From a virus, in IMG/VR virus record IMGVR_UViG_3300048588_000136, positions 25,358-89,357 of that record: a DNA stretch of 64,000 bases, one strand, 5' to 3'. Made by a program: the position numbers and the translations under genes. The notes under the pieces were generated by a model, which was not told where the DNA came from, made no database searches, and was given only the letters and a program-made list of their open reading frames with translations. Shown here one piece after another: positions 11,145-48,708 of this stretch (positions are counted from its first letter, which is position 1; the number at the start of each line of letters is the position of its first letter).

Positions 11145-11532
11145 GCTGGTGGCCGAAAGCATTGCGGTAGAGAGTCTTAGTCTTGTCACCGCTACCTTTA
11201 CCATTGGCACTGAATCCGGCAACGCCATCAATGTTGCCATCCAACTTAAAGATGCCAGCGGCGCGGATCTAGCTCGGCGTTGTGCTTTGCCGTGGTATCT
11301 ATCAAGCGATGCTAACGGTGACGCTATTGCGTCGGCGCCAGGCAGTGGCATCGCTATCGGCACTGATGGCTTGCTTTTGGAATGGACGAACAATGTCAGC
11401 GGTTTGGTTGTCAGCGAAGCCGACGGCGACATTGACGTAACCCTGACCGAATCCAGTACCGGCACATGGTATCTGGTGCTCGTGTTGCCAGGCGGTAATC
11501 TTGCCGTATCCGGCGCCATCACCTTTGCCTAA
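11107..11532 (+). CDS. Structural protein (beta-rich head fibre/decoration)
   Basis: Gly/Ser/Thr-rich beta composition within the head operon. Confidence 0.6.
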   Translation: MNTLTKGNAKVGKLVAESIAVESLSLVTATFTIGTESGNAINVAIQLKDASGADLARRCALPWYLSSDANGDAIASAPGSGIAIGTDGLLLEWTNNVSGLVVSEADGDIDVTLTESSTGTWYLVLVLPGGNLAVSGAITFA

Positions 11533-11534
11533 TT

Positions 11535-11972
11535 ATGAGCATTGATCGTGTCCGCTTACTCGTTGGCGACAACGACAGCACTGACTACGTGCTGCAAGAT
11601 GTGGATGTCGTCTTTTTTCTTGAAGAGGCGAAAGACGACATCTATCTGGCCGCCACAATGGCAGCGGAAGCCATTGCTGCCAAATACGCACGCATGGTCA
11701 CAAATAGCCAATCTGACGTGCATGGCAATCATTCGCTGACTCGCAACTATAGCGATAGACACAAACACTATCTGGATTTGGCAAAGCGACTAGAGACGCG
11801 CCGCACTAAAAACCGGATGGAAACCATGTCGCTGGGCAGCGTGTACGCGGGTGGTATCAGCAAGACTGACAAAGAGACACGCCAGGAAAATACCGACAGA
11901 CCAGAAACGGCGTTCGCCCGCGATCTACACGAGAATACGAGAGGCACGCAGCGTGGCAGTATTCTGGAATGA
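11535..11972 (+). CDS. Head-tail adaptor
   Basis: DRVRLLVGD...YLAATMAAEAIAAKYAR. Confidence 0.75.
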   Translation: MSIDRVRLLVGDNDSTDYVLQDVDVVFFLEEAKDDIYLAATMAAEAIAAKYARMVTNSQSDVHGNHSLTRNYSDRHKHYLDLAKRLETRRTKNRMETMSLGSVYAGGISKTDKETRQENTDRPETAFARDLHENTRGTQRGSILE

Positions 11973-36620: not shown

Positions 36621-37787
36621 TTACTTCGGCGGATGTAGCGGCATCACACAATGAATGTATCCATCAGCGCCGACCAGCCTAAACAGCCCCGGTCGAGTCG
36701 GCGTGGTCGTCTCCATGACAACCTGAGGCGTGTCCACTTGCGATAGGTAGTCAATTAAGTACTTGGCATTGTACAGAATTTCAACCGGCGGGCCATCAGC
36801 GGCGCATTCAATATCGCTAGCGTTGTCGCCCATTTCGGCACCGGTGGCGGCAAGGTGCAATTTTTGTTCAGTCGGATCGACGCTGAACGCTACGATGTTG
36901 GCGTTGTCACGCGCGAACAGCAGCGCTACGCGGACGGCCTTAAGCAATGCTGCTGTATCCACCGTGGTGCGGGTGTTGTAGCTTTTTGGCACCGTCGCCA
37001 TGTAATCGGGAAACCGAGCATCAATCAACTCGCTGACCAGTTCCACACGACTGATGATACCGTTGCCGGTTAGCACGAACATCACCTGATTACGTTGCGG
37101 CGTAATCAGGCATTGCACTGGCTCACCAGCAGCAGCATCGGCGCTGATACGTGCCAACTCGCCAAGCGATTTTGCCGGCACAATGACGGTAGTCTTCTCC
37201 GGGCCGCCTTCAATCGGTATCGTCCGCACACTGAGCCGATACCCGTCTGTGGCCGCCATCTTTACGCAGTCAGGTGATAGCGTGACTTCCACACCGGTTA
37301 ATGTCGGACGGTTCTCATCGGCGCTTGCTGCGAATGTCGTCTGGTCAATCATCTTGCGCATCTGGGTAACCGGCAACATCGCCTGCGTGATGGTGTCGCC
37401 GGACGTCTCGATTATCTGTTCTGCTGGCACAATCAGCGGAAACTCAAACGCATCAATCCCCTTCATGTTCGCTTCAAAGCGTGCGCAACTGAGGTGCAGC
37501 GTCTGTGTGCGCACTGTCAGTTCCATGTCGATACGATCCGGTGGCAGGCTGTTGACGAACTCGGACAGCAGGCGGGCCGACACTGTAATCGCCCCTCCAT
37601 CTTCCACCTTGGCGCCAATCCAACAGTTGATGGCGATCTCGCGATTGGTGGCCGCCAAACGTAACTGGTTGCCCTTAGCCTCTAGCAGAATGTTGCTCAG
37701 CACGGGCATTGTCGAGCGACTGGACACGGCGCGCACGGTGATTGACAGCGCTTTGGCTAACGTTTGCTGTGTGGTTGATACTCGCAT
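36621..37787 (-). CDS. dnaN: DNA polymerase III beta sliding clamp, copy 1
   Basis: RAVSSRSTMPVLSNILL, ATDGYRLS, ARFPDY and VMP. Confidence 0.95.
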   Translation of the reverse strand: MRVSTTQQTLAKALSITVRAVSSRSTMPVLSNILLEAKGNQLRLAATNREIAINCWIGAKVEDGGAITVSARLLSEFVNSLPPDRIDMELTVRTQTLHLSCARFEANMKGIDAFEFPLIVPAEQIIETSGDTITQAMLPVTQMRKMIDQTTFAASADENRPTLTGVEVTLSPDCVKMAATDGYRLSVRTIPIEGGPEKTTVIVPAKSLGELARISADAAAGEPVQCLITPQRNQVMFVLTGNGIISRVELVSELIDARFPDYMATVPKSYNTRTTVDTAALLKAVRVALLFARDNANIVAFSVDPTEQKLHLAATGAEMGDNASDIECAADGPPVEILYNAKYLIDYLSQVDTPQVVMETTTPTRPGLFRLVGADGYIHCVMPLHPPK

Positions 37788-38093
37788 AAATTCCTTTCAT
37801 TGTGGTGGCCGTGCAGTGGCTTTTCTGTTTCTGTCCCCCACCCGCCCGGCGGCTTTGTCATCGGCTGACCGTCCTGCACATGTTCCACTAGCCACGACCA
37901 TAGGACGCCGGTAGCTAGGTTGGCAACTATAGTCATTTCATCAGGTCGTAGAGCGATGCAGTACTCCACCTCGCCTGGGCGCTCGAAGCGAATATACATG
38001 GTGTCAACAGGATGCTCTTCTACGAAGCCAGCAGAGAATACTGCTCCATTACCAGCGTACTCCTGACGTAGTAACTCAAACAGCTTTGCCATT
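37757..38093 (-). CDS. Hypothetical protein
   Basis: Likely start MAKLFELL. Confidence 0.5.
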
Positions 38094-38510
38094 TTGGGCC
38101 TTTCCTGCTGTTTCAGCGCGGTCGCAAGCTTCTTGCCAAAGCTTGAGAAAGTCGGCGTACTCCATGCGCTTCTTGAGCATGTTGACAAACTGAAAGTACG
38201 GACTAGCGGCCATATCCATACGTTCCCGATGCAACCTGTCCGTCTTCTCTCGGTTGCGGCGCTTTCTCTCGCTCTCCAGGGCAACGACGGCTGTGCGGCG
38301 GGCTTTCAGTGCAACCTCGGCCTTGCGCAGCCAACCACTGTTTTTTATGCCAGAATCACGGTAGGTGTCGTACTCTAGCCTAATTTTGTCGTCAATCTCC
38401 CTCTCTTCATTGCATAGCACCGTGATCCAGTGCTGCAACTTTTCGTCGTCCAGTTCTGAAACATCTACTACTAATTCCTGGCTAATGCGTGCTTTGACGC
38501 CCATTGTCAC
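38076..38510 (-). CDS. Hypothetical coiled-coil protein
   Basis: GAGGAG SD; WLRKAEVALK. Confidence 0.6.
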   Translation of the reverse strand: MTMGVKARISQELVVDVSELDDEKLQHWITVLCNEEREIDDKIRLEYDTYRDSGIKNSGWLRKAEVALKARRTAVVALESERKRRNREKTDRLHRERMDMAASPYFQFVNMLKKRMEYADFLKLWQEACDRAETAGKAQNGKAV

Positions 38511-38520
38511 TCCTCATTCC

Positions 38521-38943
38521 TCACTTTATCATTTTAGTGATTCTAATTAATGCCGGATTAGAACCTTCCGGTTTTTTCGGCTGCTTCTTTGCCCGCACTG
38601 GCTGCAATCGGCACTCGGCCAGTGCGTCGTTCCAAGTGTCAAAAACAACGATTTCCAGCAGTGACCACGACGGCAACAGTAGGCTACGGCGCGCGCTATA
38701 CTCCTGATTCGTTGGCGTGCGACCTAACTGGTTCGCCACCCGGATAATGTCGCCAACAGCTGCCATTTTTAACACTTGGCAGCCCTCACGATGTGTGTTT
38801 AAATCTTTCGACATTTGCGCCATGTGTCCACAGACACAGCGCCTTGTAGCGTCGGCGTGCCGCTGTAAGTACTCGGTTAGTTGCTGTAGTTGATTCGCTA
38901 GTTGCTGCAATGTTGGCTGCGATGTGGTCACTTCACGTCCCAT
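38521..38943 (-). CDS. Zn-finger + homing-endonuclease-associated repeat protein
   Basis: RCVCG...H...C; LGRTPT..EY...PS...FDTWNDAL. Confidence 0.7.
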   Translation of the reverse strand: MGREVTTSQPTLQQLANQLQQLTEYLQRHADATRRCVCGHMAQMSKDLNTHREGCQVLKMAAVGDIIRVANQLGRTPTNQEYSARRSLLLPSWSLLEIVVFDTWNDALAECRLQPVRAKKQPKKPEGSNPALIRITKMIK

Positions 38944-39396
38944 CTATTTCACCCTCCACAACTTGTCCCACTTGCGCCCATCAGGAACCACGACGAACAG
39001 TACACGATTCGCGCTCATTGACGATTTAACCTGGCGTCTCGTTAGCCCGGCGCTCTCTGCGATTTGCTTGTGCGTCAACGCATTGCGTCCCAGGCAGCGC
39101 AGAATACGTCCAAGGTGTGTATCGCCGACGCGGGCGGTTTCCGCCTCAGGCTGTGGTTGCATCTGTTCTGGTTCATCGGGATCTACTTCGCTAGTATTGT
39201 CCGCTGACAACTCGGGCATTGTCAGTAAGTTGATTCGTCCAGCCTCATGTAATGCCAGTAGACGAAAGAACTCGTCAGCGCTACACTCTAGCCAACCAAG
39301 TGGCTTGCGCTGTGGATAAACAGTGCGCACATGAGCATGTGCTATTTTGGTAGCGCCGCGGTAGACGTGGCGGCCATTGTGCGCGGATACGGTCAT
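38944..39396 (-). CDS. Winged-helix DNA-binding protein (MTVSAHN family, copy 1)
   Basis: LTHKQIAESAGLTRRQV. Confidence 0.6.
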   Translation of the reverse strand: MTVSAHNGRHVYRGATKIAHAHVRTVYPQRKPLGWLECSADEFFRLLALHEAGRINLLTMPELSADNTSEVDPDEPEQMQPQPEAETARVGDTHLGRILRCLGRNALTHKQIAESAGLTRRQVKSSMSANRVLFVVVPDGRKWDKLWRVK

Positions 39397-39398
39397 GA

Positions 39399-39941
39399 TT
39401 ACCCCCTGTGTGGCGTTGCGCCGGTTTGCCCATTATAGTGGCCGACAAAATGATACGAGAGCAGTGGTTGTTCTATCATCTGCTCAAGCTTCAACTGCAC
39501 AAGAGCATCGCCCACGTAGAGGCGCATATCCCACGGGCCTTCATTGGTAAATTCAAAGGTCGCTTGCCCGTGGAAATCAGGCTCAAAAAAGCCCGCATGT
39601 AAATGCTCAAACAGTCGTCGCCCAGTCCCTGACCGGCTCATCAATGTGCCACTGGCATCTGATGGCATCTTGATATATTCCAATGAGCAGCAGAGAGCCA
39701 CACCATGCGCTGGAACAATAATGCCGTCTTCACCGATAGTGATTTCTTCATCCCACAAGTCAGTGGCCGGGGTCTTCATGGTAATCGGCGGGCAACTGTG
39801 CGTAAGCCACCTTCGACGGGGAAAGCGAATTTTATTGCCTAGTCGAATATCAATACTGGCAGGGCGAATCAAGGATTTATCACAGGGCGTAATGCCGCCT
39901 GTGATTGCCCACTCATAAAGTTTTCTGTCATTCCAAATCAC
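39399..39941 (-). CDS. dcd: dCTP deaminase
   Basis: PASIDIRLG, SRSGTGR, AGFFEPDFHG and YNGQ. Confidence 0.85.
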   Translation of the reverse strand: MIWNDRKLYEWAITGGITPCDKSLIRPASIDIRLGNKIRFPRRRWLTHSCPPITMKTPATDLWDEEITIGEDGIIVPAHGVALCCSLEYIKMPSDASGTLMSRSGTGRRLFEHLHAGFFEPDFHGQATFEFTNEGPWDMRLYVGDALVQLKLEQMIEQPLLSYHFVGHYNGQTGATPHRG

Positions 39942-40090
39942 AGCATCTCTACCTTTCTGATTGCCAAGCCGGGAGCAACCTGGCGAATATAGCTAATCAC
40001 AGCCACGATGTCACTGTATCCACGGTACATCTGTGGCATCATCTCAGCAGGGACAAATAACACATGCCGAACGCCGTGGCTATTCCATAC
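39938..40090 (-). pseudogene. 5'-truncated paralog of 44181-44401
   Basis: GVRHVLFVPAE...YIRQVAPGLAIRKVEML*; in-frame stop just upstream. Confidence 0.55.
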
Positions 40091-40379
40091 CCAACGCTAC
40101 CATTTCCTGCCTCATGGCGTTCCAGTGGGCGCCACTGACTGTTCCAGTTGATTCCATATTCATTTCGGCGCGGTCGCAAACACGATTGTAAAACTGTTCA
40201 ACAATGGTGTTGCGCTCTGTTTCCAGTTCGACGATGCGGGTGGCCATCTCTTCAAATTCTTCGATGTAGGCCAGCAACGCAACGGGCGACAGTTTGACCG
40301 GTTCGTGTTCCTCGTATGCGGCTTCTGCCTGCCGCCGTATTAACTCGACAAATTTTTGCGTTGTGTGTTTGTATTCCAT
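40080..40379 (-). CDS. Hypothetical protein
   Basis: GAGGTG SD before MEYKHT. Confidence 0.5.
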   Translation of the reverse strand: MEYKHTTQKFVELIRRQAEAAYEEHEPVKLSPVALLAYIEEFEEMATRIVELETERNTIVEQFYNRVCDRAEMNMESTGTVSGAHWNAMRQEMVALGME

Positions 40380-40395
40380 GCTATCCACCTCTCTT

Positions 40396-40426
40396 TGTTG
40401 CGTCTCTACCCGCTCCACGAGGCGCT
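40396..40426. repeat. 31-bp dispersed repeat, copy 1
   Basis: TGTTGCGTCTCTACCCGCTCCACGAGGCGCT; one mismatch to 44845-44875. Confidence 0.9.
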
Positions 40427-41095
40427 GTTTAGTTTTTGCCACGCTGCCATGATGTTCTGACAGCTACGTTCAAAGGCGATATAAGGCATATCTTCATTGA
40501 TAGAGTTGCCTGCTTCGCTCAATTTTGGCCAGTATCGATTATTGGCGTAGCGGGCATTGCCCGGTGTCCAGAACTGACCATACTGAATCGCCATTTTTTG
40601 GGCATAGTTGCCGTCTGCACTGACAACATTCAGATAATTACACATTTCCATCTGACGCTGCGGACTACCACCCAGCAGATGCACCGGCCAGCCTGCAAAT
40701 TCCCATACTGGCACCTCTGTACCGCCAAACTTGGTCGGCACACTGTAGCCAAGCCTGACCGTTTTTCCGGCGATAACACGGGGTAACAGTTCGATGGCGC
40801 CGAAAAACTTTGGTATGATCATCACCACGTCTACCCATTGCGCTGCATCCTCTGACCATTCTAATACCTCGTCAAGTTGGTCAGGTCGTTCCAAGTCCAG
40901 CACGCTTGCCATGTATGGTCGGTGTTGCGCCAAGCACGCCATGTATTTTGTCCGGTCGGGTTTCTTCCAATCTTGATCACAAAACATCGGCGGGAAATAA
41001 ACCGTACCGGGCATCTGCGCGCCATACAGAAAACCGTGACTGATGGCTATTTCGGCAAATCGCCGGTTGCCGTTGGCGCAATAGATAATTTCCAT
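40406..41095 (-). CDS. TGT/DpdA-like TIM-barrel protein (DUF6610-like)
   Basis: LGYSVPTKFG, VHLLGGSP and SADGN resemble the HLLG...S.D signature of transglycosylase-like folds. Confidence 0.55.
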   Translation of the reverse strand: MEIIYCANGNRRFAEIAISHGFLYGAQMPGTVYFPPMFCDQDWKKPDRTKYMACLAQHRPYMASVLDLERPDQLDEVLEWSEDAAQWVDVVMIIPKFFGAIELLPRVIAGKTVRLGYSVPTKFGGTEVPVWEFAGWPVHLLGGSPQRQMEMCNYLNVVSADGNYAQKMAIQYGQFWTPGNARYANNRYWPKLSEAGNSINEDMPYIAFERSCQNIMAAWQKLNSASWSG

Positions 41096-41385
41096 ACGTT
41101 GATAATCCTGCCTGACTTGGCTTGCTCAGTGAGCGACAGTTCAAAGCCGCGCCGAACATACCATTCGTTTGACGCTAAATCGACAGGGCATTTGGCGACA
41201 ATGCAGACTGCGTTCGGTGTGCGTCTCAGCGTTTCCAGCATGGCAGATCCGGCGCCCGGTTTCTGGCTAATGATTTCGCGGATGGTCAGTTGACCATCTC
41301 TGCGTAGATGCCAGTGGCACATCGCACCGTCTACCAACAGCAGTTCACCGCGTTCGCTTGATTCGTAAAGATTTTCAAAGCACAT
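41047..41385 (-). CDS. GNAT acetyltransferase-like protein
   Basis: PGAGSAML, CPVDLASNEWYVRRGF. Confidence 0.7.
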   Translation of the reverse strand: MCFENLYESSERGELLLVDGAMCHWHLRRDGQLTIREIISQKPGAGSAMLETLRRTPNAVCIVAKCPVDLASNEWYVRRGFELSLTEQAKSGRIINVWKLSIAPTATGDLPK

Positions 41386-41600
41386 TAATACCCTCTTTCT
41401 CTCTTCGCTCTCACTACTTTCCGTGTCCGACTCGCCGTATGCCCATGATGGAATTGCCCACAGAACGGGCAGCGGTAGGCTGTGGTACGGGCGCCCGTAC
41501 GTCTACGCAAGCTCAGACTGGCGCCGATAGCATCTTCAAGCGTTGGGTAGCTGCGTTTCCATTCGCAAGCCTTTTTACGCTGATGGCGTTTGCTTGCCAT
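41385..41600 (-). CDS. Small basic Zn-binding phage protein
   Basis: C..KRSY...AYRCPFCGQFH. Confidence 0.65.
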   Translation of the reverse strand: MASKRHQRKKACEWKRSYPTLEDAIGASLSLRRRTGARTTAYRCPFCGQFHHGHTASRTRKVVRAKRERGY

Positions 41601-41608
41601 GTGGCCTC

Positions 41609-42787
41609 CTATTTCATCGGGTTCATCGGCATGATCACCATCAGATAATCGCTATCACCAACCGGCCTAATTGCGCCTGGTCGTGTCGGCTGCGTCGTCT
41701 CAATCGTGGCCTGGGCCGTAGGAACATGCGATAATGCATCTGACAACAGCCGGCCATCGAATGCAATGTTGATTTCAGCGCCTTCTACGCTGCATTCAAT
41801 TTCGCTGGTGTTGTCACCCATTTCCGCACTGGTGGCAGAGACTTGAAACACGCCTCGGTTGGGCGAATCATCGGGGCGCAATGCACAGCGGATAATGTTA
41901 GCGTTGTCACGAGCAAACAGCATGGCAACCCTGACCGCTTTCAGCAAAGCAGCGGCATCAACTGTGCAACGGGTGTTCTGGCTTTTGGGGATAGTGGCAC
42001 GGTAATCGGGAAACCGAGCGTCAATGAGTTCTGAAATAATGTCTACCCGTTTCCATTCCTTCGCACTGGTAGCGCTGAATAGCACTTGATTACGGTTGGC
42101 GCTGACAATAGCGGTGATCTCGCCGGTTGCATCGCTACAGATGCGTGACACCTCGGACAGGTTGCGACCGGGGATGATGATAGTCGCCTTTTCGCCAGCG
42201 CTTGCCTCTACGCTGCGCATACTGAGCCGGTAGCCATCGGTGGCGGCCATCGTCAATCTGCCATCCTCAAAGGTCGTTTCTACGCCGGTTAGCGTTGGCC
42301 GGTTTTCATCGGCAGAAGCGGCAAAGGTTACGCTATCAATCAGCGATGCCAACGCATTTGACGCCACGGTGTACACGTCGCCTGTAACCGTTGGCGCATC
42401 GGTTGGTTCCGGCTGATAGGTGGGAATCAGCGGAAACTCGAAAGCGTTAATACCTTTGATGTTGGCTGAATGCTTGGCACAGGTCAGGCGCAACGTCTCT
42501 GTAAGCTGTTGCAATGCCATAGTGACACGTTCATTGGGCAGGCTGTTGATAAATTCGCTTAACAGACGAGCGGGGATTGTGGTAGAGCCGGATTCCTCCA
42601 CATCGGCGGCAATCCAACAGTTAATACCAATTTCGCGGTTGGTTGCGGCGAGTCGTAAGCCGTCTCCGGTGGCATCCAGTAGAACATTGCCCAACACCGG
42701 CATTGTTGTTCGACTGGATACGGCACGGTTGACGATAGACAGCGCTTTGGCTAACGCTGATTGGTTAACGGATAATCGCATATTCAC
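41609..42787 (-). CDS. dnaN: DNA polymerase III beta sliding clamp, copy 2
   Basis: RAVSSRTTMPVLGNVLL, ATDGYRLS, ARFPDY and IMPM. Confidence 0.95.
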   Translation of the reverse strand: MNMRLSVNQSALAKALSIVNRAVSSRTTMPVLGNVLLDATGDGLRLAATNREIGINCWIAADVEESGSTTIPARLLSEFINSLPNERVTMALQQLTETLRLTCAKHSANIKGINAFEFPLIPTYQPEPTDAPTVTGDVYTVASNALASLIDSVTFAASADENRPTLTGVETTFEDGRLTMAATDGYRLSMRSVEASAGEKATIIIPGRNLSEVSRICSDATGEITAIVSANRNQVLFSATSAKEWKRVDIISELIDARFPDYRATIPKSQNTRCTVDAAALLKAVRVAMLFARDNANIIRCALRPDDSPNRGVFQVSATSAEMGDNTSEIECSVEGAEINIAFDGRLLSDALSHVPTAQATIETTQPTRPGAIRPVGDSDYLMVIMPMNPMK

Positions 42788-43073
42788 TCCCTATGGTTTT
42801 TCGAGTTGGTTTCAGTCCCGTCTCGATAATGGCATCGTTCCACGTCAAAAAAATGGTGTCGCCACAGTTTGACCAACCTGGCAACAATTTACAACGATGG
42901 CTGCTGTATTCCTGCTGTGTCGGCGTGCGACCTATCATGTTGGCGACACGCCGAATATCGCCAAGATAGGCACAGCGCATGAGTTGGCAATCTTGGCGGT
43001 GAACAATGAGCGCTTGCCGATCTCTAGCCACATATCCACACATACAGCGGTGTTCTGGATTACTCATCCTCAT
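42765..43073 (-). CDS. Zn-finger + HNH-associated repeat protein (paralog of 38521)
   Basis: RCMCG...IGRTPTQQEY...TWNDAI. Confidence 0.7.
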   Translation of the reverse strand: MRMSNPEHRCMCGYVARDRQALIVHRQDCQLMRCAYLGDIRRVANMIGRTPTQQEYSSHRCKLLPGWSNCGDTIFLTWNDAIIETGLKPTRKTIGSEYAIIR

Positions 43074-43410
43074 CCTCTATCTCATACACGATAAAATACC
43101 GATTACCTACGAGCCGCTTTCCGGTTGCTACTGCGCCCCGCACATTCCCTTTGCGAATCTGGTGATTGACCTGGCTAGGCTCGGCAATGCCTAGTCCCTC
43201 GGCAATCTCTCTGGCTGTGGCCGGGCCATGTTCCATCAGCCACGGGCGAATCTGGTCTAGCACCTGGAAGGCGCTCGGTTTGCGCAACTTTTTTAGATGG
43301 GGATTCAGTTCGTAAAACATGCTGGTGCGCGGTTCTAGGCCAGGGCTAACATTTTTAGCGAGACTGGCGCCACGCCAGACACGGCGGCTGTTGTGGGCGG
43401 ATACGGTCAT
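43060..43410 (-). CDS. Winged-helix protein (MTVSAHN family, copy 2)
   Basis: HGPATAREIAEGLG. Confidence 0.6.
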   Translation of the reverse strand: MTVSAHNSRRVWRGASLAKNVSPGLEPRTSMFYELNPHLKKLRKPSAFQVLDQIRPWLMEHGPATAREIAEGLGIAEPSQVNHQIRKGNVRGAVATGKRLVGNRYFIVYEIEDEDE

Positions 43411-43411
43411 A

Positions 43412-43756
43412 CTAAAACGCCTTTCCGCCATGCTTGTATGGACGCTCCACATTTACCTTGTGCTTGGCAAGAATGGCCTCGGCTAACGGCCAGCCGCGGG
43501 CATGGCATGTGTCCATAATGCGGATGATCGTATCGGCAAATTCAACCACAGCGCCATTGAACTCTGGACATTTGTCATCGGGAGGGTTGCCGTGACGGAT
43601 AGCCTCTAGCGCCTCGCTGAGTTCGCTGTGCATCAATGCAATCATTTCGCCATCGTTGCGGTCGGTTTCCCACCAGCCGTGATTGCGTGCATTGTGATGG
43701 ATAGCACTTGCCATCATATTAAAGCCAGTTACAAAGTCATCAGGAAAAGTTATCAC
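43412..43756 (-). CDS. MazG-like NTP pyrophosphohydrolase
   Basis: HSELSEALEA...EFADTIIR. Confidence 0.8.
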   Translation of the reverse strand: MITFPDDFVTGFNMMASAIHHNARNHGWWETDRNDGEMIALMHSELSEALEAIRHGNPPDDKCPEFNGAVVEFADTIIRIMDTCHARGWPLAEAILAKHKVNVERPYKHGGKAF

Positions 43757-44184
43757 TACTCACCTACTTTCAATTGTTCAATCTGAATTCTTGCCCATTT
43801 GAAAAACTCATCACCGCGCCCGTTGGCATAGTCATGAAGATACACCACACGCCAAACACCGACGTTGATCAACATCTTGGCGCACAGGATACAGGGAAAA
43901 TGCGTCACGTAGGCGGTTGCGCCTTTGACAGCGATGCCATGCATAGCCGCCTGGACAATGGCGTTCTGCTCGGCGTGGAGCGTGCGAACACAATGCCCAT
44001 TTACCATCAGATGCCCAACGTCATCGCAGTGGTCAAGACCGCTTACACTGCCATTGTATCCTGTGGTCAAAACACGATTATCACGTACCAACACGCAGCC
44101 GATCTGCGCTCGGTCACAGGTTGAACGTTGCGCTACCATGTGCGCAATGCCGATAAAGTAATCATCCCAACTAGGGCGACTCAC
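43756..44184 (-). CDS. dCMP deaminase
   Basis: RPSWDDYF, TGYNG, HAEQNA and PCILC. Confidence 0.92.
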   Translation of the reverse strand: MSRPSWDDYFIGIAHMVAQRSTCDRAQIGCVLVRDNRVLTTGYNGSVSGLDHCDDVGHLMVNGHCVRTLHAEQNAIVQAAMHGIAVKGATAYVTHFPCILCAKMLINVGVWRVVYLHDYANGRGDEFFKWARIQIEQLKVGE

Positions 44185-44401
44185 AGCATTTCTACCTTTC
44201 TCATTGTCAAGCCGGGGGCCTGACTGCGGATGTATTCAACGGCCTTGACTAAATCGCCGTGGCTACGATGCAAGCCGACAAATTCAGCAGGCACGAAACA
44301 CACATGCCGCAAGCCGCTGAACTCTATCACCAACACACGCTGATAGCCTGGGCGCGCCAGGGGCAGCGCTTCGCCTTCGTCTACTCGGATGATGAGCATG
44401 T
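44181..44401 (-). CDS. Hypothetical protein
   Basis: MLIIRVDEG...RHVCFVPAE; has a truncated paralog. Confidence 0.55.
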
Positions 44402-44830
44402 GGATGTTTCCTTTTTGTGATTCGCAGCATTGGGGCAAACTGACCATCCGCCTTCGCCATCACAGACACTACATACCTCTTCGTCATCTTCATCGTAGAA
44501 CAGGGGATCTTCGTCGTATAGGCTCAAGTAACCATCATCACAGCCATTCCAGCACTCTTCCCATTCCATTGATGCGCCGCAAATTTCGCACCTTCCGTCG
44601 TCATCCTGTGGGTAGCTGCATCCAAGAGCGTCATAGCACTCATTGCAAAGGTGATGCCAGTAGTTCCCGTTGGCGTCATGTACGCCATAGGGGTGTGCCT
44701 CTTGGTCTTCATCTTGGCAATGGTCACAGATTCGGACAGGAATGATGCTTTTAATCTCACCTGTACCACCAAGCGCTTTACCAAGCGTCTGCAACGTTTC
44801 TATTGTTTCTGCTTTTATTTCCTTGTGCAT
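44381..44830 (-). CDS. Cys-rich zinc-finger protein
   Basis: Multiple CxxC and CxxCxGxG motifs. Confidence 0.65.
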   Translation of the reverse strand: MHKEIKAETIETLQTLGKALGGTGEIKSIIPVRICDHCQDEDQEAHPYGVHDANGNYWHHLCNECYDALGCSYPQDDDGRCEICGASMEWEECWNGCDDGYLSLYDEDPLFYDEDDEEVCSVCDGEGGWSVCPNAANHKKETSTCSSSE

Positions 44831-44844
44831 GATTTCCTTCTTTA

Positions 44845-44875
44845 TGTTGCGCCTCTACCCGCTCCACGAGGCGCT
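44845..44875. repeat. 31-bp dispersed repeat, copy 2 (hairpin GCGCCTC/GAGGCGC upstream of an RBS)
   Basis: Direct match to 40396-40426. Confidence 0.9.
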
Positions 44876-44965
44876 ATAGGGTCGTAGCTGCGATTTGGTA
44901 CGATGGTTCGATGATGGCAATGATGTTATGAACACAGTGAGCAGCGGCGGCGACCTGGGACAACA

Positions 44966-45355
44966 TTACTTAGCTACTACTGGCAAATATAAGAAGTGCA
45001 GCGGCCGGATCACAATCGGCATCGCTGTCGGTGGCACTTGCACCGGCGTCGCTGTTGGTGTGGCCTGTGCAGTCACGGCCGGGGCAAGGCAGCGCTCGGA
45101 GCCGTCCGGCTCTACCCAACACGCTGACGGCGTTTCAGTGGGCGTTGGCGCCTGTGCCTCTGCGCTTGGGACCGGCAACAGGAACAGGAACGCCAGCACA
45201 ATCAAGGCAAATACCCAGGTGGCAATGTCGTAGCGACGGCTACACTGTGGACACGGGCCGTTGGTTGTCGTTGGGTCGTAGTAGGTGCCGCAGGCGGGGC
45301 ATTTGGCAAGCCCCATTCGCTTGCTTAAATCTGAATTGTTGAGTAACATACTCAC
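44966..45355 (-). CDS. Zn-ribbon + TM + PT-linker protein ending in a Chloroflexi-type YLPVV motif
   Basis: CPAC/CPQC; hydrophobic segment; TPTATP; FLYLPVVAK*. Confidence 0.65.
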   Translation of the reverse strand: MSMLLNNSDLSKRMGLAKCPACGTYYDPTTTNGPCPQCSRRYDIATWVFALIVLAFLFLLPVPSAEAQAPTPTETPSACWVEPDGSERCLAPAVTAQATPTATPVQVPPTAMPIVIRPLHFLYLPVVAK

Positions 45356-45427
45356 GGATCCTTTCGGCTAAACTCTGGTAAGGGTCTACGTGGCCTGGGT
45401 GTGTCAGCACTCAGGCCACAACATTTA

Positions 45428-46204
45428 CTATCTCCCTATCTCACGGCTCAACGTATGCCATGCTGTTGCAACCACAACAGGCACCTGTCCATTGCCAAGG
45501 GCTTTAATCCTGTGGCCCCTATCGGTATCCCCATCAGCCATTCGTAAAATATCGTCATGACCGGCTCGCCATACCTCACTAGATATTCGTATGGAATCCG
45601 TCGTTGCACGACGTGGCCTGATGCTCTGCGTTCCTTGTTTACTGCTCTTTGCGCCTCGATGAGATTGTTGAATCCCACTTTGTGATCTGCCGCTGTCGGG
45701 GTAGGCCAGTATGAACAGTCTTTCCCGTGTGTGTGGCGCTCCAGTGGCGCAAGCCGAAAACACACCCCAGATTGCATCCATCCCCATTTCGGCCAAGTCT
45801 CCAAGTATTCGCTCGAAATACCCGCTATTAATGAGGGCTGGAACGTTTTCCAACAGCGCATACTGTGGTCGTATGATGCGCAAACATTCAGCGGTCGCTG
45901 GCCACATGTTTCGGGGATCGTCGGCTCTGAGCATGGGGCCGGCGGCACTGAATGGCTGGCAGGGGAAACCGCCTGTAACCACGTCGATAAATCCTCGGCA
46001 CTGTTCAGCGGCACCGGACTGGATGAAGTGACGAATGTCGCCAAAGATGGGCGCTCGGCTAAACAAGCCGTCGTCAATTCTTGCCCGGAGAACTCGCTGA
46101 CAATATTTATTCCATTCGACATAACCTAAGCACTCCCAGCCTAACAGATAATGTGTTGCCCATACGCCTAGTCCAGCGCCGGCGAATAGTGCAAGCTCTT
46201 TCAT
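45428..46204 (-). CDS. C5 cytosine DNA methyltransferase (alpha chain)
   Basis: LFAGAG, GGFPCQ, ENV, HTRER and LGN; motif IX not seen. Confidence 0.92.
   Translation of the reverse strand: MKELALFAGAGLGVWATHYLLGWECLGYVEWNKYCQRVLRARIDDGLFSRAPIFGDIRHFIQSGAAEQCRGFIDVVTGGFPCQPFSAAGPMLRADDPRNMWPATAECLRIIRPQYALLENVPALINSGYFERILGDLAEMGMDAIWGVFSACATGAPHTRERLFILAYPDSGRSQSGIQQSHRGAKSSKQGTQSIRPRRATTDSIRISSEVWRAGHDDILRMADGDTDRGHRIKALGNGQVPVVVATAWHTLSREIGR
45448..46122 (-). CDS. Nested alternative-frame MTase beta chain (EcoHK31I-type)
   Basis: 224-codon same-strand ORF; WPTPTA.D...EWLMGIPIG is motif IX-like. Confidence 0.7.
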   Translation of the reverse strand: MSNGINIVSEFSGQELTTACLAERPSLATFVTSSSPVPLNSAEDLSTWLQAVSPASHSVPPAPCSEPTIPETCGQRPLNVCASYDHSMRCWKTFQPSLIAGISSEYLETWPKWGWMQSGVCFRLAPLERHTHGKDCSYWPTPTAADHKVGFNNLIEAQRAVNKERRASGHVVQRRIPYEYLVRYGEPVMTIFYEWLMGIPIGATGLKPLAMDRCLLWLQQHGIR

Positions 46205-46803
46205 CCGAACAACCCTACCTGAACCGGAACCGGCTCAATCTCAACGGCCGGCGCTTCACCGAAACGGGGGTCGTAATAGTCGCTGCGCTGTGGCGGTAAT
46301 ACGTAATCCATGCCCCACAGCGCGAAGATGTCCTGCTCTTCTGGCGTCTCTATCAGCTTCGCGCCTGCCCAGACACGGGCGTCGCGCACCTGATAGCCGT
46401 CTGGCATAAAGCCATGCTGTGACCGCTTCGTCACCATCTTGCGGCTGAACTCTGCCGTGCCGGTTCTGAGCAGCATATTGACACCCCACGTTGCTGGGTC
46501 AGGCTGCAAGAACAGATCAACCTGCACATACTCATCTAGCACCTTGACCGGAAAGCGAAAGCTGCGCAGCTTATTGCCCCAGCGCTTGGGCGTCGTGTGC
46601 AGGATGGCGCCGATACGTACCAGAAGATCAAGCTCTTCGTACAGTTCCACGGTGGGAATGCAAACCAACTCAATGTCGCCTATTTCCGGCTTGCAGCGAC
46701 GAATGCTACCAGCAATTTCGATACGCCTAGCGTGAGTCTGCAAGCTACTAATAAGCTGGTCGGCGACGGTTCTGGCGACGGCCAGCGGGATTTTTGTTTT
46801 CAT
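46201..46803 (-). CDS. Minimal family X DNA polymerase
   Basis: IAGSIRR...GDIELV...VDLF...RTG...EEQDIF...PPQR. Confidence 0.88.
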   Translation of the reverse strand: MKTKIPLAVARTVADQLISSLQTHARRIEIAGSIRRCKPEIGDIELVCIPTVELYEELDLLVRIGAILHTTPKRWGNKLRSFRFPVKVLDEYVQVDLFLQPDPATWGVNMLLRTGTAEFSRKMVTKRSQHGFMPDGYQVRDARVWAGAKLIETPEEQDIFALWGMDYVLPPQRSDYYDPRFGEAPAVEIEPVPVQVGLFG

Positions 46804-47882
46804 GCGGCTACCTCCAAATCAAACAGTGACAGATTCGTATAGGTCGCCGGCTTGAGGCAATGCGGACTAAACCAAATACGCTCCTTGGTAGCATTGTCAC
46901 GACCGCGACCATTGCCCTGCATACCGTAACCGCCGTGTGCTTTCCAGGCGAGACAGTCCCAGCCGGGAAGATCGTACTCGCCATCGTAGCCGCAAAGGGC
47001 TATCCTCAACAGCGGATTATCACCGTTGGCCTTGCACCAATCTGCGACCGCATGGCCTACTTCCAGACAATCTACCTCGTACAAATCGGCCTCGCGTCCA
47101 GCCTTGGCGGTGTAAGGCGGGTCAAGGAAAACAGCGGTCAGTCCATTTTTGAATGTCGGTGTCGGCCCACAGACGCGCGACCAATCACCGCAGCAGACAC
47201 GCACGCGGGTCAGGCGTTCGGATAGCGCTTGCATCCAGGCGTATAGCCCCTGTTCGCCTGCGCCGGCGTTGCCACCGGCGGCAAGCGCAACTTTCGCCTG
47301 ATTCACTCCCTGTCCCTGGTGCATGAGGTGGACACGCTGCCGGTTGACGCCCTGCCCGCTGTTGCCCAGGTGGACAAGCTGCCGGTTGACGCCCTGCCCG
47401 CTGTTGCCCAGGTGGACAAGCTGCCACCCGTCCGGTGTTTCTACCTGTTGCCACGGTCCTCTCCCGCTGCACCAGCCGCCGCCAATCCAACACGCCGCAC
47501 CCCAGCACCACCATCCCGCGATTTTCGGATCGTAGTAATCGGGATCGCCTTCCAACTTGGCGGCTAGCCCGTCCGCCTGACGTACCAGCCAACCGTGGCG
47601 GGCGTGGAGGTCGTTTTCGTTCACCGGCCAGTCGGCGTAGTGCGCTACGGCGTCGGGGTCAGCCTGAACCGCACGCCAGAAGTTCGCAATGAACCCGCTG
47701 GCGTCGTTCACGGTTTCCAGCATGGTTTTATCAGTCCGCCAATGCGGTCGGTTGAGTAGCACGGCGCCGCTGCCAAAAAACGGCTCGACATAGTTGGGGG
47801 TGTCACCAAGTCGTGACCACACGGCGTCGGCTATTTCGGATTTTCCGCCAAAATAAGGAAATGGTGCTTTCACGGCTGACAT
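46800..47882 (-). CDS. D12-class (Dam-like) N6-adenine DNA methyltransferase
   Basis: PYFGGKS, YVEPFFGSGAV and FLDPPY. Confidence 0.92.
   Translation of the reverse strand: MSAVKAPFPYFGGKSEIADAVWSRLGDTPNYVEPFFGSGAVLLNRPHWRTDKTMLETVNDASGFIANFWRAVQADPDAVAHYADWPVNENDLHARHGWLVRQADGLAAKLEGDPDYYDPKIAGWWCWGAACWIGGGWCSGRGPWQQVETPDGWQLVHLGNSGQGVNRQLVHLGNSGQGVNRQRVHLMHQGQGVNQAKVALAAGGNAGAGEQGLYAWMQALSERLTRVRVCCGDWSRVCGPTPTFKNGLTAVFLDPPYTAKAGREADLYEVDCLEVGHAVADWCKANGDNPLLRIALCGYDGEYDLPGWDCLAWKAHGGYGMQGNGRGRDNATKERIWFSPHCLKPATYTNLSLFDLEVAA
47326..47425. repeat. 42-bp in-frame tandem repeat (~2.4 copies) in the MTase
   Basis: AGGTGGACA(C/A)GCTGCCGGTTGACGCCCTGCCCGCTGTTGCCC; encodes QLVHLGNSGQGVNR. Confidence 0.9.
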
Positions 47883-47895
47883 CCTTTAGTTGTCT

Positions 47896-48708
47896 CTAGA
47901 ACAAAAATGCTTGACCGGGGTTCAACTTTTCCGCTAGAGTTCTAGAAAACCCGTTTGCTTTGATCTCACTGCGCACCGCTTCATTATGCGCGATCCAAGC
48001 GCTAGCCTGTGCGAAAAAGTCCTTTTTGATTTCAAACCCATAGCCACGGCGCCCCAGGTTGTACGCCGCAATCAGCGTTGAACCGCTACCGGCGCAGGGA
48101 TCAATCACCACGTCGCCAGGATCGGTGAAGATGCTAATCAGCCGCTCCAATAAGGCGACAGGCTTTTGTGTCGGATGAATCTTCTGATAGAGATCATCTT
48201 TGTCATCTTCCCAATCCATGACATTGAAGATCATCTTGCCGCCGTTGTTGAACTTTGGTAGCTTTTCCCGGTAGAGCAACAGCGCGTATTCAGCGTTACC
48301 GACAACCCGCATGTTAGCTTTTAACACCTGAGCGCTGTATTTCTTGCGAAATACCAAATTAATGTAATTGTTGATACCATATTGCCGTGCAAGCTCAATC
48401 AAACTGAACTGCTGTTCAAAGCTGCAAAACACAATCATGCATGGAGCCTTGCCGCGCTCTTTCGGCTCCTTAACCATCAACTTCGAGCAGAAATGCATAA
48501 ACTCAGCGGGCTTGAAATTTTCGTCAGTGTCAAAGAATGACTTGCCGGCTAACTCACTTTCGCCGTTGGCGTTGTCACCGTCCACATACCATTGCGGATT
48601 GGATGCATAAGCTTTATCGGAGAGATTGTAGGGGATATCTGCTATGACTAATTGCGCGCGCGGTATGTTGTAACTTTTGAAGTTTTGGAAATGATCATTG
48701 AATAGCAT
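47896..48708 (-). CDS. N4/N6 (beta-class) DNA methyltransferase
   Basis: ADIPYN, HPTQKP and DPCAGSGST. Confidence 0.92.
   Translation of the reverse strand: MLFNDHFQNFKSYNIPRAQLVIADIPYNLSDKAYASNPQWYVDGDNANGESELAGKSFFDTDENFKPAEFMHFCSKLMVKEPKERGKAPCMIVFCSFEQQFSLIELARQYGINNYINLVFRKKYSAQVLKANMRVVGNAEYALLLYREKLPKFNNGGKMIFNVMDWEDDKDDLYQKIHPTQKPVALLERLISIFTDPGDVVIDPCAGSGSTLIAAYNLGRRGYGFEIKKDFFAQASAWIAHNEAVRSEIKANGFSRTLAEKLNPGQAFLF

Follow-up and report, generated by a model that had tools for sequence, protein, structure and literature searches.

Why would a phage that encodes neither a replicative polymerase nor a clamp loader carry two beta sliding clamps, and why do DNA-modifying enzymes close to them end in short peptides of the kind that dock on such clamps? 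The question is raised by positions 36,621 to 48,708 of the window, the whole 64,000-nucleotide stretch analysed here, which represents bases 25358-89357 of the complete 89,357-bp virus record IMGVR_UViG_3300048588_000136 with direct terminal repeats (DTR). A first-pass annotation had described two full-length, diverged dnaN genes with the motifs of the peptide pocket, three consecutive enzymes with clamp-type tails, and no DnaE or clamp loader; all of this was confirmed when the tails were read again and the domains searched, and the last point holds for the entire genome. We found that the tail motif is a trait of the enzyme families themselves and that the phage clamps are an addition peculiar to this lineage. 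At a probability of roughly 0.6, we read the tails as beta-clamp-binding motifs through which DNA modification, and perhaps also the filling of gaps, is tied to replication.

The tailed enzymes are encoded in a block of four genes on the minus strand, whose junctions are a 13-nt gap followed by two 4-nt overlaps. The first is an N6_N4 DNA methyltransferase (47896..48708, 270 aa; PF01555 at 98.8 bits, profile positions 2-219 of 221) that ends in QAFLF (codons 47899-47913), the second a D12-type (Dam-like) DNA methyltransferase (46800..47882, 360 aa) with the tail NLSLFDLEVAA (NLSLF codons 46821-46835), and the third a mini X-family polymerase-like protein, here called mini-PolX (46201..46803, 200 aa), with the tail QVGLFG (QVGLF codons 46207-46221). 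The last is a C5 DNA methyltransferase (45428..46204, 258 aa; PF00145 at 102.2 bits), the start of which overlaps the mini-PolX stop and which ends in SREIGR with no clamp-type tail. A fourth tail, PGQAFLFQ, was found outside the window in a second N6_N4 methyltransferase on the plus strand (genome 2286-3224, L005:2286-3224), which is 87% identical to the window copy and whose listed open reading frame (ORF) probably starts too far upstream. Across the genome, the pattern [QN]xx[LM]F occurred in the last 15 residues of 4 of 119 ORFs, all four among the 6 DNA enzymes and none among the 113 others (hypergeometric p = 1.9e-6, and 3.7e-5 with paralogues counted once).

Canonical clamp-binding peptides have the forms Q-phi-x-[L/M][F/L] and Q-phi-x-[L/M]-x-[F/L], and in the accessible part of the review that defines them the exchange of Gln for Asn has modest effects only, position 2 is tolerant of substitution, and the LF moiety is able to bind alone in subsite I of the clamp (PMC11139829). 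QVGLF and both copies of QAFLF match Q-phi-x-[L/M]-[F/L], and NLSLF matches it save for the Asn at position 1. The host is most likely a member of Caldilineaceae (filamentous Chloroflexota), and this likely host lineage uses canonical clamp motifs itself: in each of five Caldilineaceae genomes (5 of 5, L104-L108), DinB homologues carry RQLSLW[DE] in its customary place, roughly 40 residues short of the C-terminus. The Trp of this host motif is not among the final motif residues listed in the accessible part of PMC11139829. Among the homologues of the phage enzymes, Trp-ending tails were present as QVGLW and QAGLW in the mini-PolX family and as ..TLW in eight methyltransferase loci.

The first-pass annotation had made its idea depend on the motifs being conserved in homologues, and this expectation was borne out for the three enzymes. 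Among the best 120 homologues of the 270-aa methyltransferase (74-100% identity), Q..[LM]F was located within the last 12 residues in 94, with a looser form in 21 and none in 5, and within the last 15 residues in 105, against a background of 12 of 787 neighbouring ORFs, each of at least 100 aa; judging from their N- or C-termini, several of these 12 may be other methyltransferases. Across 28 aligned homologues, Q266 was kept in at least 90% and L269 was invariant, and the linker and the residues beyond the motif varied. The 80 methyltransferase loci from IMG/VR (64-75% identity) comprised 17 with the strict motif, 3 with a loose one, 59 with no Q..LF and one truncated copy, and [LM][FW] was present in the last 6 residues of 74 of the 78 full-length viral copies versus 35 of the 787 neighbouring ORFs.

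For the D12-type methyltransferase, the patterns were sought in the last 30 residues of the best 120 homologues, where Q..[LM]F was found in 30, xLxLF in 9, a looser form in 10 and none in 71; the strict Q..[LM]F fell in the last 15 residues of 27. All of the 15 closest homologues (66-86% identity) keep [LM]F behind an SPxC anchor, in the forms NLSLF, TLSLF, QMSLF, QAGLF, QASLF and QVGLF. The phage protein matches PF02086 at 36.5 bits (cut-off 22) over residues 10-82 only, which is its N-terminal part, and has the catalytic DPPY motif, as LDPPYT. Its gene also contains an in-frame 42-bp tandem repeat (47326-47425, 2.4 copies, 98% matches) that repeats a 14-residue unit, and its closest homologue, P0241, is 31 aa shorter than the phage protein with the repeat.

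When characterizing mini-PolX, we obtained from Pfam the thumb only (DNA_pol_B_thumb, 30.2 bits). Its AlphaFold2 model (predicted local distance difference test, pLDDT, 94) was matched by Foldseek to Thermus thermophilus PolX, Pol lambda and Pol beta at probability 1.0 (TMq 0.63-0.70, 17-23% identity), with E of 2.8e-10 against T. thermophilus PolX/Pol lambda. GSxRR, G42-D43-x-E45 and D96 are invariant in 39 mini-PolX sequences, and the middle residue of the acidic motif is Glu (D-x-E), versus Asp in the catalytic triad D-x-D ... D. By its modelled fold, mini-PolX is a palm-and-thumb X-family protein with putative polymerase activity. A C-terminal Q..[LM]F was present in 30 of 120 homologues; nearly all members of the clade of about 200 aa have a Q.[GS]LF tail, and three distant members have different extensions with QMSLF, QLSLF and QLSMF. 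Core-only proteins of some 180 aa, the common form, are tail-less and have an internal [DN]L[FL]G loop directly past the catalytic strand, also seen as GLF..G (homologues P0121-P0240; viral loci L117-L196); this LF-containing loop may serve as a clamp motif inside the protein or have a structural role. Taken together, these comparisons support the reading of the tails as conserved short linear motifs of apparent beta-clamp-binding type, far beyond what chance endings would give.

The clamps themselves are both on the minus strand. Clamp 1 (DnaN-1, 36621..37787, 388 aa) is the host-like copy and clamp 2 (DnaN-2, 41609..42787) has 392 aa as listed; each possesses the three Pfam beta-clamp domains (PF00712, PF02767 and PF02768, all above cut-offs), and they match clamps of the PDB with E of 6e-42 and 7e-44. 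The two are 55% identical over 394 columns, and both have TDGYRL, FPDY and the C-terminal MP. An AAGGA is located 4 nt upstream of the ATG of clamp 1. For clamp 2 the listed start is a GTG, and six bases further in, at 42781, there is an ATG with GGGAG ahead of it. This ATG gives MRLSV..., similar to the MRVST... of clamp 1, and is probably the true start of clamp 2.

The pocket (subsites I and II) was compared at the residues listed in PMC11139829, in Escherichia coli numbering and with the E. coli DnaN of a K-12 record. R152, L155, T172, G174, R176, L177, P242, M362 and P363 are identical to E. coli in both clamps. Clamp 1 equals the DnaN of Caldilinea at 16 of 18 pocket positions (changes V360C and M364L), and clamp 2 at 15 of 18 (N320D, Y323L and H365N, all in subsite II), with its 12 subsite I positions all equal to the host. 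The clamp of another phage contig, L007, has D320 as in clamp 2, plus F323. Judged by these residues, the peptide pocket is kept in both phage clamps.

The closest cellular relatives of clamp 2 are DnaN proteins on large contigs of Caldilineaceae/Caldilineales metagenome-assembled genomes (MAGs), at 51-57% identity. A maximum likelihood tree of 19 rows, with E. coli as the root, placed the two phage clamps inside the Caldilineales/Caldilineaceae DnaN clade (support 99/99); in it, clamp 2 was sister to the clamp of L007 (support 100/100), and the grouping of clamp 1 with clamp 2 and L007 had a support of 66/98 only. Identity to the DnaN of a Caldilinea MAG (L093) was 69.6% for clamp 1 and 58.4% for clamp 2. 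By descent in this tree, the phage clamps derive from host-lineage DnaN. Two cellular Chloroflexota MAG contigs, L096 and L101, each carry two dnaN genes side by side, and doubled clamps are therefore found in the host phylum also. The ORF after the pair in L101 has an N-terminus that may be RecF-like.

Do the tails go together with phage clamps? Among 49 viral records with a homologue of the 270-aa methyltransferase, a DnaN match was present in one, and the clamp concerned is very remote, with 24.5% identity to clamp 2. DnaN was present in none of the 17 such records that are at least 90% complete, and 16 of their 17 methyltransferases end in an [LMI][FW] tail, the remaining one being unreadable. 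Likewise, the surroundings of 80 viral mini-PolX loci (up to 10 kb away, 1621 ORFs) contained no DnaN. The nearest relative of the phage (G049, 96% complete) has a single clamp, of the clamp-2 type, and its methyltransferase of 477 aa ends in DLPLFA. The two-clamp state is not conserved. The tails are kept in phages without a clamp, and therefore they must fit ordinary host clamps. The first-pass annotation had proposed to look for related phages that carry dnaN together with tailed methyltransferases, and such an association did not emerge. Its larger claim, a clamp platform built by the phage for the tailed enzymes, stood in part: the clamp-type motifs are conserved and the pockets are kept, but the tails are independent of the phage clamps.

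The search for a replicative polymerase and a clamp loader was made in six frames over the whole 89,357-bp genome, and PF07733, PF13177, PF00476 and PF00136 each gave 0 matches, with control genomes positive in the same searches; the families without a match comprise DnaE/PolC-type, A-family and B-family polymerases and the clamp-loader module. The phage lacks a polymerase and a clamp loader, and therefore its clamps must depend on the host loader for loading and must serve host Pol III. From the motifs and pockets we infer the following mode of action. The Leu-Phe of a tail would dock in subsite I, and its Gln or Asn in subsite II, of a beta clamp left on new DNA, so that the tailed enzymes would be concentrated on freshly replicated, still unmethylated phage DNA, and methylation and short-gap filling would thus be coupled to replication. 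Any beta clamp with a kept pocket could serve; in most phages with these enzymes this would be the host clamp, and here the two host-derived clamps of the phage would serve as docking clamps too. Most likely, the phage clamps would add to the existing pool of clamps, or take its place, while the phage replicates.

Several observations weigh against this coupling. Both C5 methyltransferases of the phage are without a clamp-type tail, and the NLSLF of the D12-type enzyme lacks the Gln. In the viral copies of the 270-aa methyltransferase the Gln is often lost, and in 59 of the 80 loci only ..[TIS]LF is left, which is a weaker match to the motif. The remoter PF01555 relatives are mostly tail-less, with LF within the last 10 residues in 4 of 10 full-length rows (the representatives, taken at 50% identity, were mostly fragments, and these 10 rows were readable). 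The structure model of the methyltransferase is mediocre (mean pLDDT 69.5, last block 69) and presents only coil for the last eight residues. In mini-PolX, the internal loop and the tail exclude each other: among 107 homologues that could be anchored (13 others could not and were left out of the count), the loop alone occurs in 58, the tail alone in 31, neither of them in 18, and the two together in 0. Moreover, residues 181-190 of the mini-PolX model have a pLDDT of 89, which falls to 68 in the last ten residues.

The alternative that draws most on these observations, and survives best, is that the tails are not clamp ligands at all and instead bind another partner, or have a function within the enzyme itself, as a plug in its structure or in autoinhibition or dimerisation, the Leu-Phe ending being a coincidence. 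The exclusion of loop and tail would also fit a structural element packing on the enzyme itself, most of the mini-PolX extension is confidently modelled, and many methyltransferase tails have no Gln. The loop/tail pattern is clade-structured and so represents few evolutionary events. Against this alternative, which we consider unlikely, the same motif class is found on three unrelated folds within one operon, the linkers vary in length and sequence and the motif stays terminal, independent tails arrive at the exact consensus QLSLF, and the change of F to W parallels the DinB motif of the host.

Next in standing, and improbable, is a division of labour in which clamp 1 would serve host Pol III and the host loader, and clamp 2, as an older phage-resident lineage with an altered Gln subsite, would be a private docking ring for the tailed phage enzymes, or in which the two would pair as a heterodimer that has one face of either kind. 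The changes of clamp 2 would suit such a specialisation, being confined to subsite II with subsite I as in the host and with D320/F323 in L007, as would the distances of the two clamps from the host clamp (70% versus 58% identity) and the Shine-Dalgarno-like sites at both clamp genes. However, the nearest relative has the clamp-2 type only and yet a methyltransferase with a Leu-Phe ending, and the same tails in phages without any clamp must fit host clamps. About as improbable is the further proposal of a viral "modification clamp", in which clamp 1 would feed host Pol III and clamp 2, with its remodelled Gln subsite and as a ring of its own or one half of a heterodimer, would carry the methyltransferases and mini-PolX behind the fork, not competing with the replisome. 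A dedicated two-clamp platform is a minority reading only, because the distribution data do not support it; what speaks for it is the altered subsite II of clamp 2. Finally, it is very unlikely that the phage clamps are takeover tools, forming inactive mixed rings with the host clamp or soaking up host clamp clients such as repair and regulatory proteins to the benefit of phage replication, with the tails mattering for the host clamp only: the host-lineage origin makes mixed rings conceivable and no polymerase or loader is encoded by the phage, but both clamps keep the pocket and all three domains, like working clamps.

The surroundings of these genes were characterized by Pfam and PHROG scans. 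In the window, structural genes are located on the plus strand up to about 33.4 kb, and a long minus-strand block from about 58.5 kb down to 34.2 kb carries genes of replication, recombination and nucleotide metabolism. The phage encodes a primase-helicase of 851 aa, RecT, ERCC4 and HNH nucleases, a serine recombinase, dCTP deaminase, dCMP deaminase and DUF6610, and five DNA methyltransferases in total. With its serine recombinase the phage is temperate, and in the complete genome the window represents the arm for replication and DNA modification. No GenBank phage matched the region in a megablast search. Beside and between the clamps (39399-41385 and 43412-44184) are pyrimidine genes, namely dCTP deaminase, DUF6610, a gene read as MazG-like (without a Pfam family) and dCMP deaminase, which suggests a remodelled pyrimidine nucleotide pool.

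Both clamp genes follow paralogous pairs of minus-strand genes. Ahead of clamp 2 are a winged helix-turn-helix (wHTH)-like gene (43060-43452, with weak HTH matches) and an HNH_repeat gene (42765-43073; PF18780, 24.5 bits), and ahead of clamp 1 are their paralogues, again wHTH-like (38944-39396) and HNH_repeat (38521-38943). The two HNH_repeat proteins have 47% identity, and the two wHTH-like proteins are alike in 16 N-terminal residues only. A small Cys/His protein without a Pfam family (41385..41600, minus strand) comes directly after clamp 2. The order wHTH-like, HNH_repeat, dnaN and small Cys/His protein is common to L007, where a protein with a similar ending to the Cys/His protein follows the clamp (11241-11585).

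Two further ORFs were considered and set aside. A second open frame of 224 aa (45448-46122, minus strand) spans most of the C5 methyltransferase gene in another frame; it was ruled out as the target-recognition part of this enzyme, having neither a Pfam match nor any likeness to the other C5 methyltransferase of the phage. A 232-aa ORF outside the window (genome 23449-24147, minus strand, L006:5450-6148) has QVALF at residues 17-21, an N-terminal position that resembles the motif placement in Hda or MuC; the ORF belongs to no Pfam family, and its motif, which may be chance, was set aside.

A promoter scan gave 21 candidates versus 14.0 ± 3.9 in shuffles and a terminator scan 15 versus 18.2, so that neither was above shuffles and no firm word on separate expression can be drawn from them. 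Contigs of three wastewater RNA libraries (X18, X19 and X20, from two studies) match, with 90-99% likeness, 41622-45113 and the stretch near 47284-47717; one probable DNA library likewise has contigs on the clamp-2 module and part of the methyltransferase block at the same likeness. These contigs are from close relatives in wastewater and indicate presence only, since RNA libraries may hold DNA; clamp 1 had no contig from the RNA libraries, a gap that carries no evidential weight.

How do these clamps and tails compare with known systems? Full-length DnaN homologues were found in 156 records of GenBank phages, 139 of them covering at least 80% of the query. Those of Arthrobacter, Ralstonia, Mycobacterium, Nodularia, Rhizobium 16-3, Salinibacter and other phages are less than 30% identical to clamp 2 among the matches listed, and among these no case of two clamp copies in one GenBank phage was seen. 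Our literature searches brought up no functional study of phage beta clamps. The two host-derived clamps offer, by their presence together, a natural experiment on whether a virus is able to partition clamp clients, and they also bear on drug and peptide targeting of the clamp pocket.

Mini-PolX shares with the X-family polymerases T. thermophilus PolX, Pol lambda and Pol beta the palm and thumb, GSxRR and the acidic residues, and differs from them by the lack of the 8-kDa, fingers and PHP domains, by D-x-E instead of D-x-D, and by its clamp-type tail. The 174-aa Pol X of African swine fever virus (ASFV) is reportedly a known minimal form of the family. A survey of bacterial polymerases distinguishes PolX1, PolX2 and PolX-like groups, and its accessible part mentions no clamp motif for family X (PMC12926913).

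The known bacterial clients with a clamp-binding motif include Pol II, Pol III alpha, Pol IV, Pol V, delta, Hda and MutL, and, in the accessible part of the same review, they resemble the present enzymes in the Q-phi-x-[L/M]-[F/L] pentapeptide, its frequent position at a flexible C-terminus and the subsite I/II pocket (PMC11139829). The difference is that here the tails belong to DNA methyltransferases and a 200-aa X-family enzyme, and that one tail has Asn for Gln. The word "methyltransferase" is absent (0 times) from the main text of this 2024 review, and our literature searches turned up no published bacterial or phage methyltransferase with a clamp-binding motif. Should the tails bind the clamp, the known beta-clamp clients would come to include methyltransferases and a minimal X-family enzyme, a claim open to direct testing with peptides and purified clamps because the motif is simple and shared throughout the families.

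Phage precedents are partial. In phage Mu, according to the accessible parts of the reports, MuC and Mor dock on the host clamp by way of Qx[D/E][L/M]F and so tie a phage process to replication, and family-wide conservation of the motif was used as an argument there too (PMC12867686; bioRxiv 10.1101/2025.01.04.631326); however, these two proteins are transcription factors whose motifs lie at the N-terminus, and Mu has no known clamp of its own. T4 gp45 is likewise a phage-encoded clamp that acts as a hub, in the accessible account for gp43, gp33 and gp55 (PMC9690074), but it is trimeric and has its own loader and polymerase, whereas the present clamps are dimer-type DnaN from the host lineage that need the host loader and polymerase. 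The closest parallel in logic is DNMT1 on PCNA, a DNA methyltransferase with a clamp-binding peptide that, in the same partly accessible source, prefers clamp-bearing, newly made DNA (PMC9690074); the clamp (PCNA), the PIP-type motif and the enzyme are all unrelated to those described here, and the resemblance is an analogy of logic and not homology. If the tails bind the clamp, bacterial viruses would couple DNA methylation to replication by this same DNMT1-on-PCNA logic, which would explain how phage DNA is protected from restriction at the moment of its synthesis.

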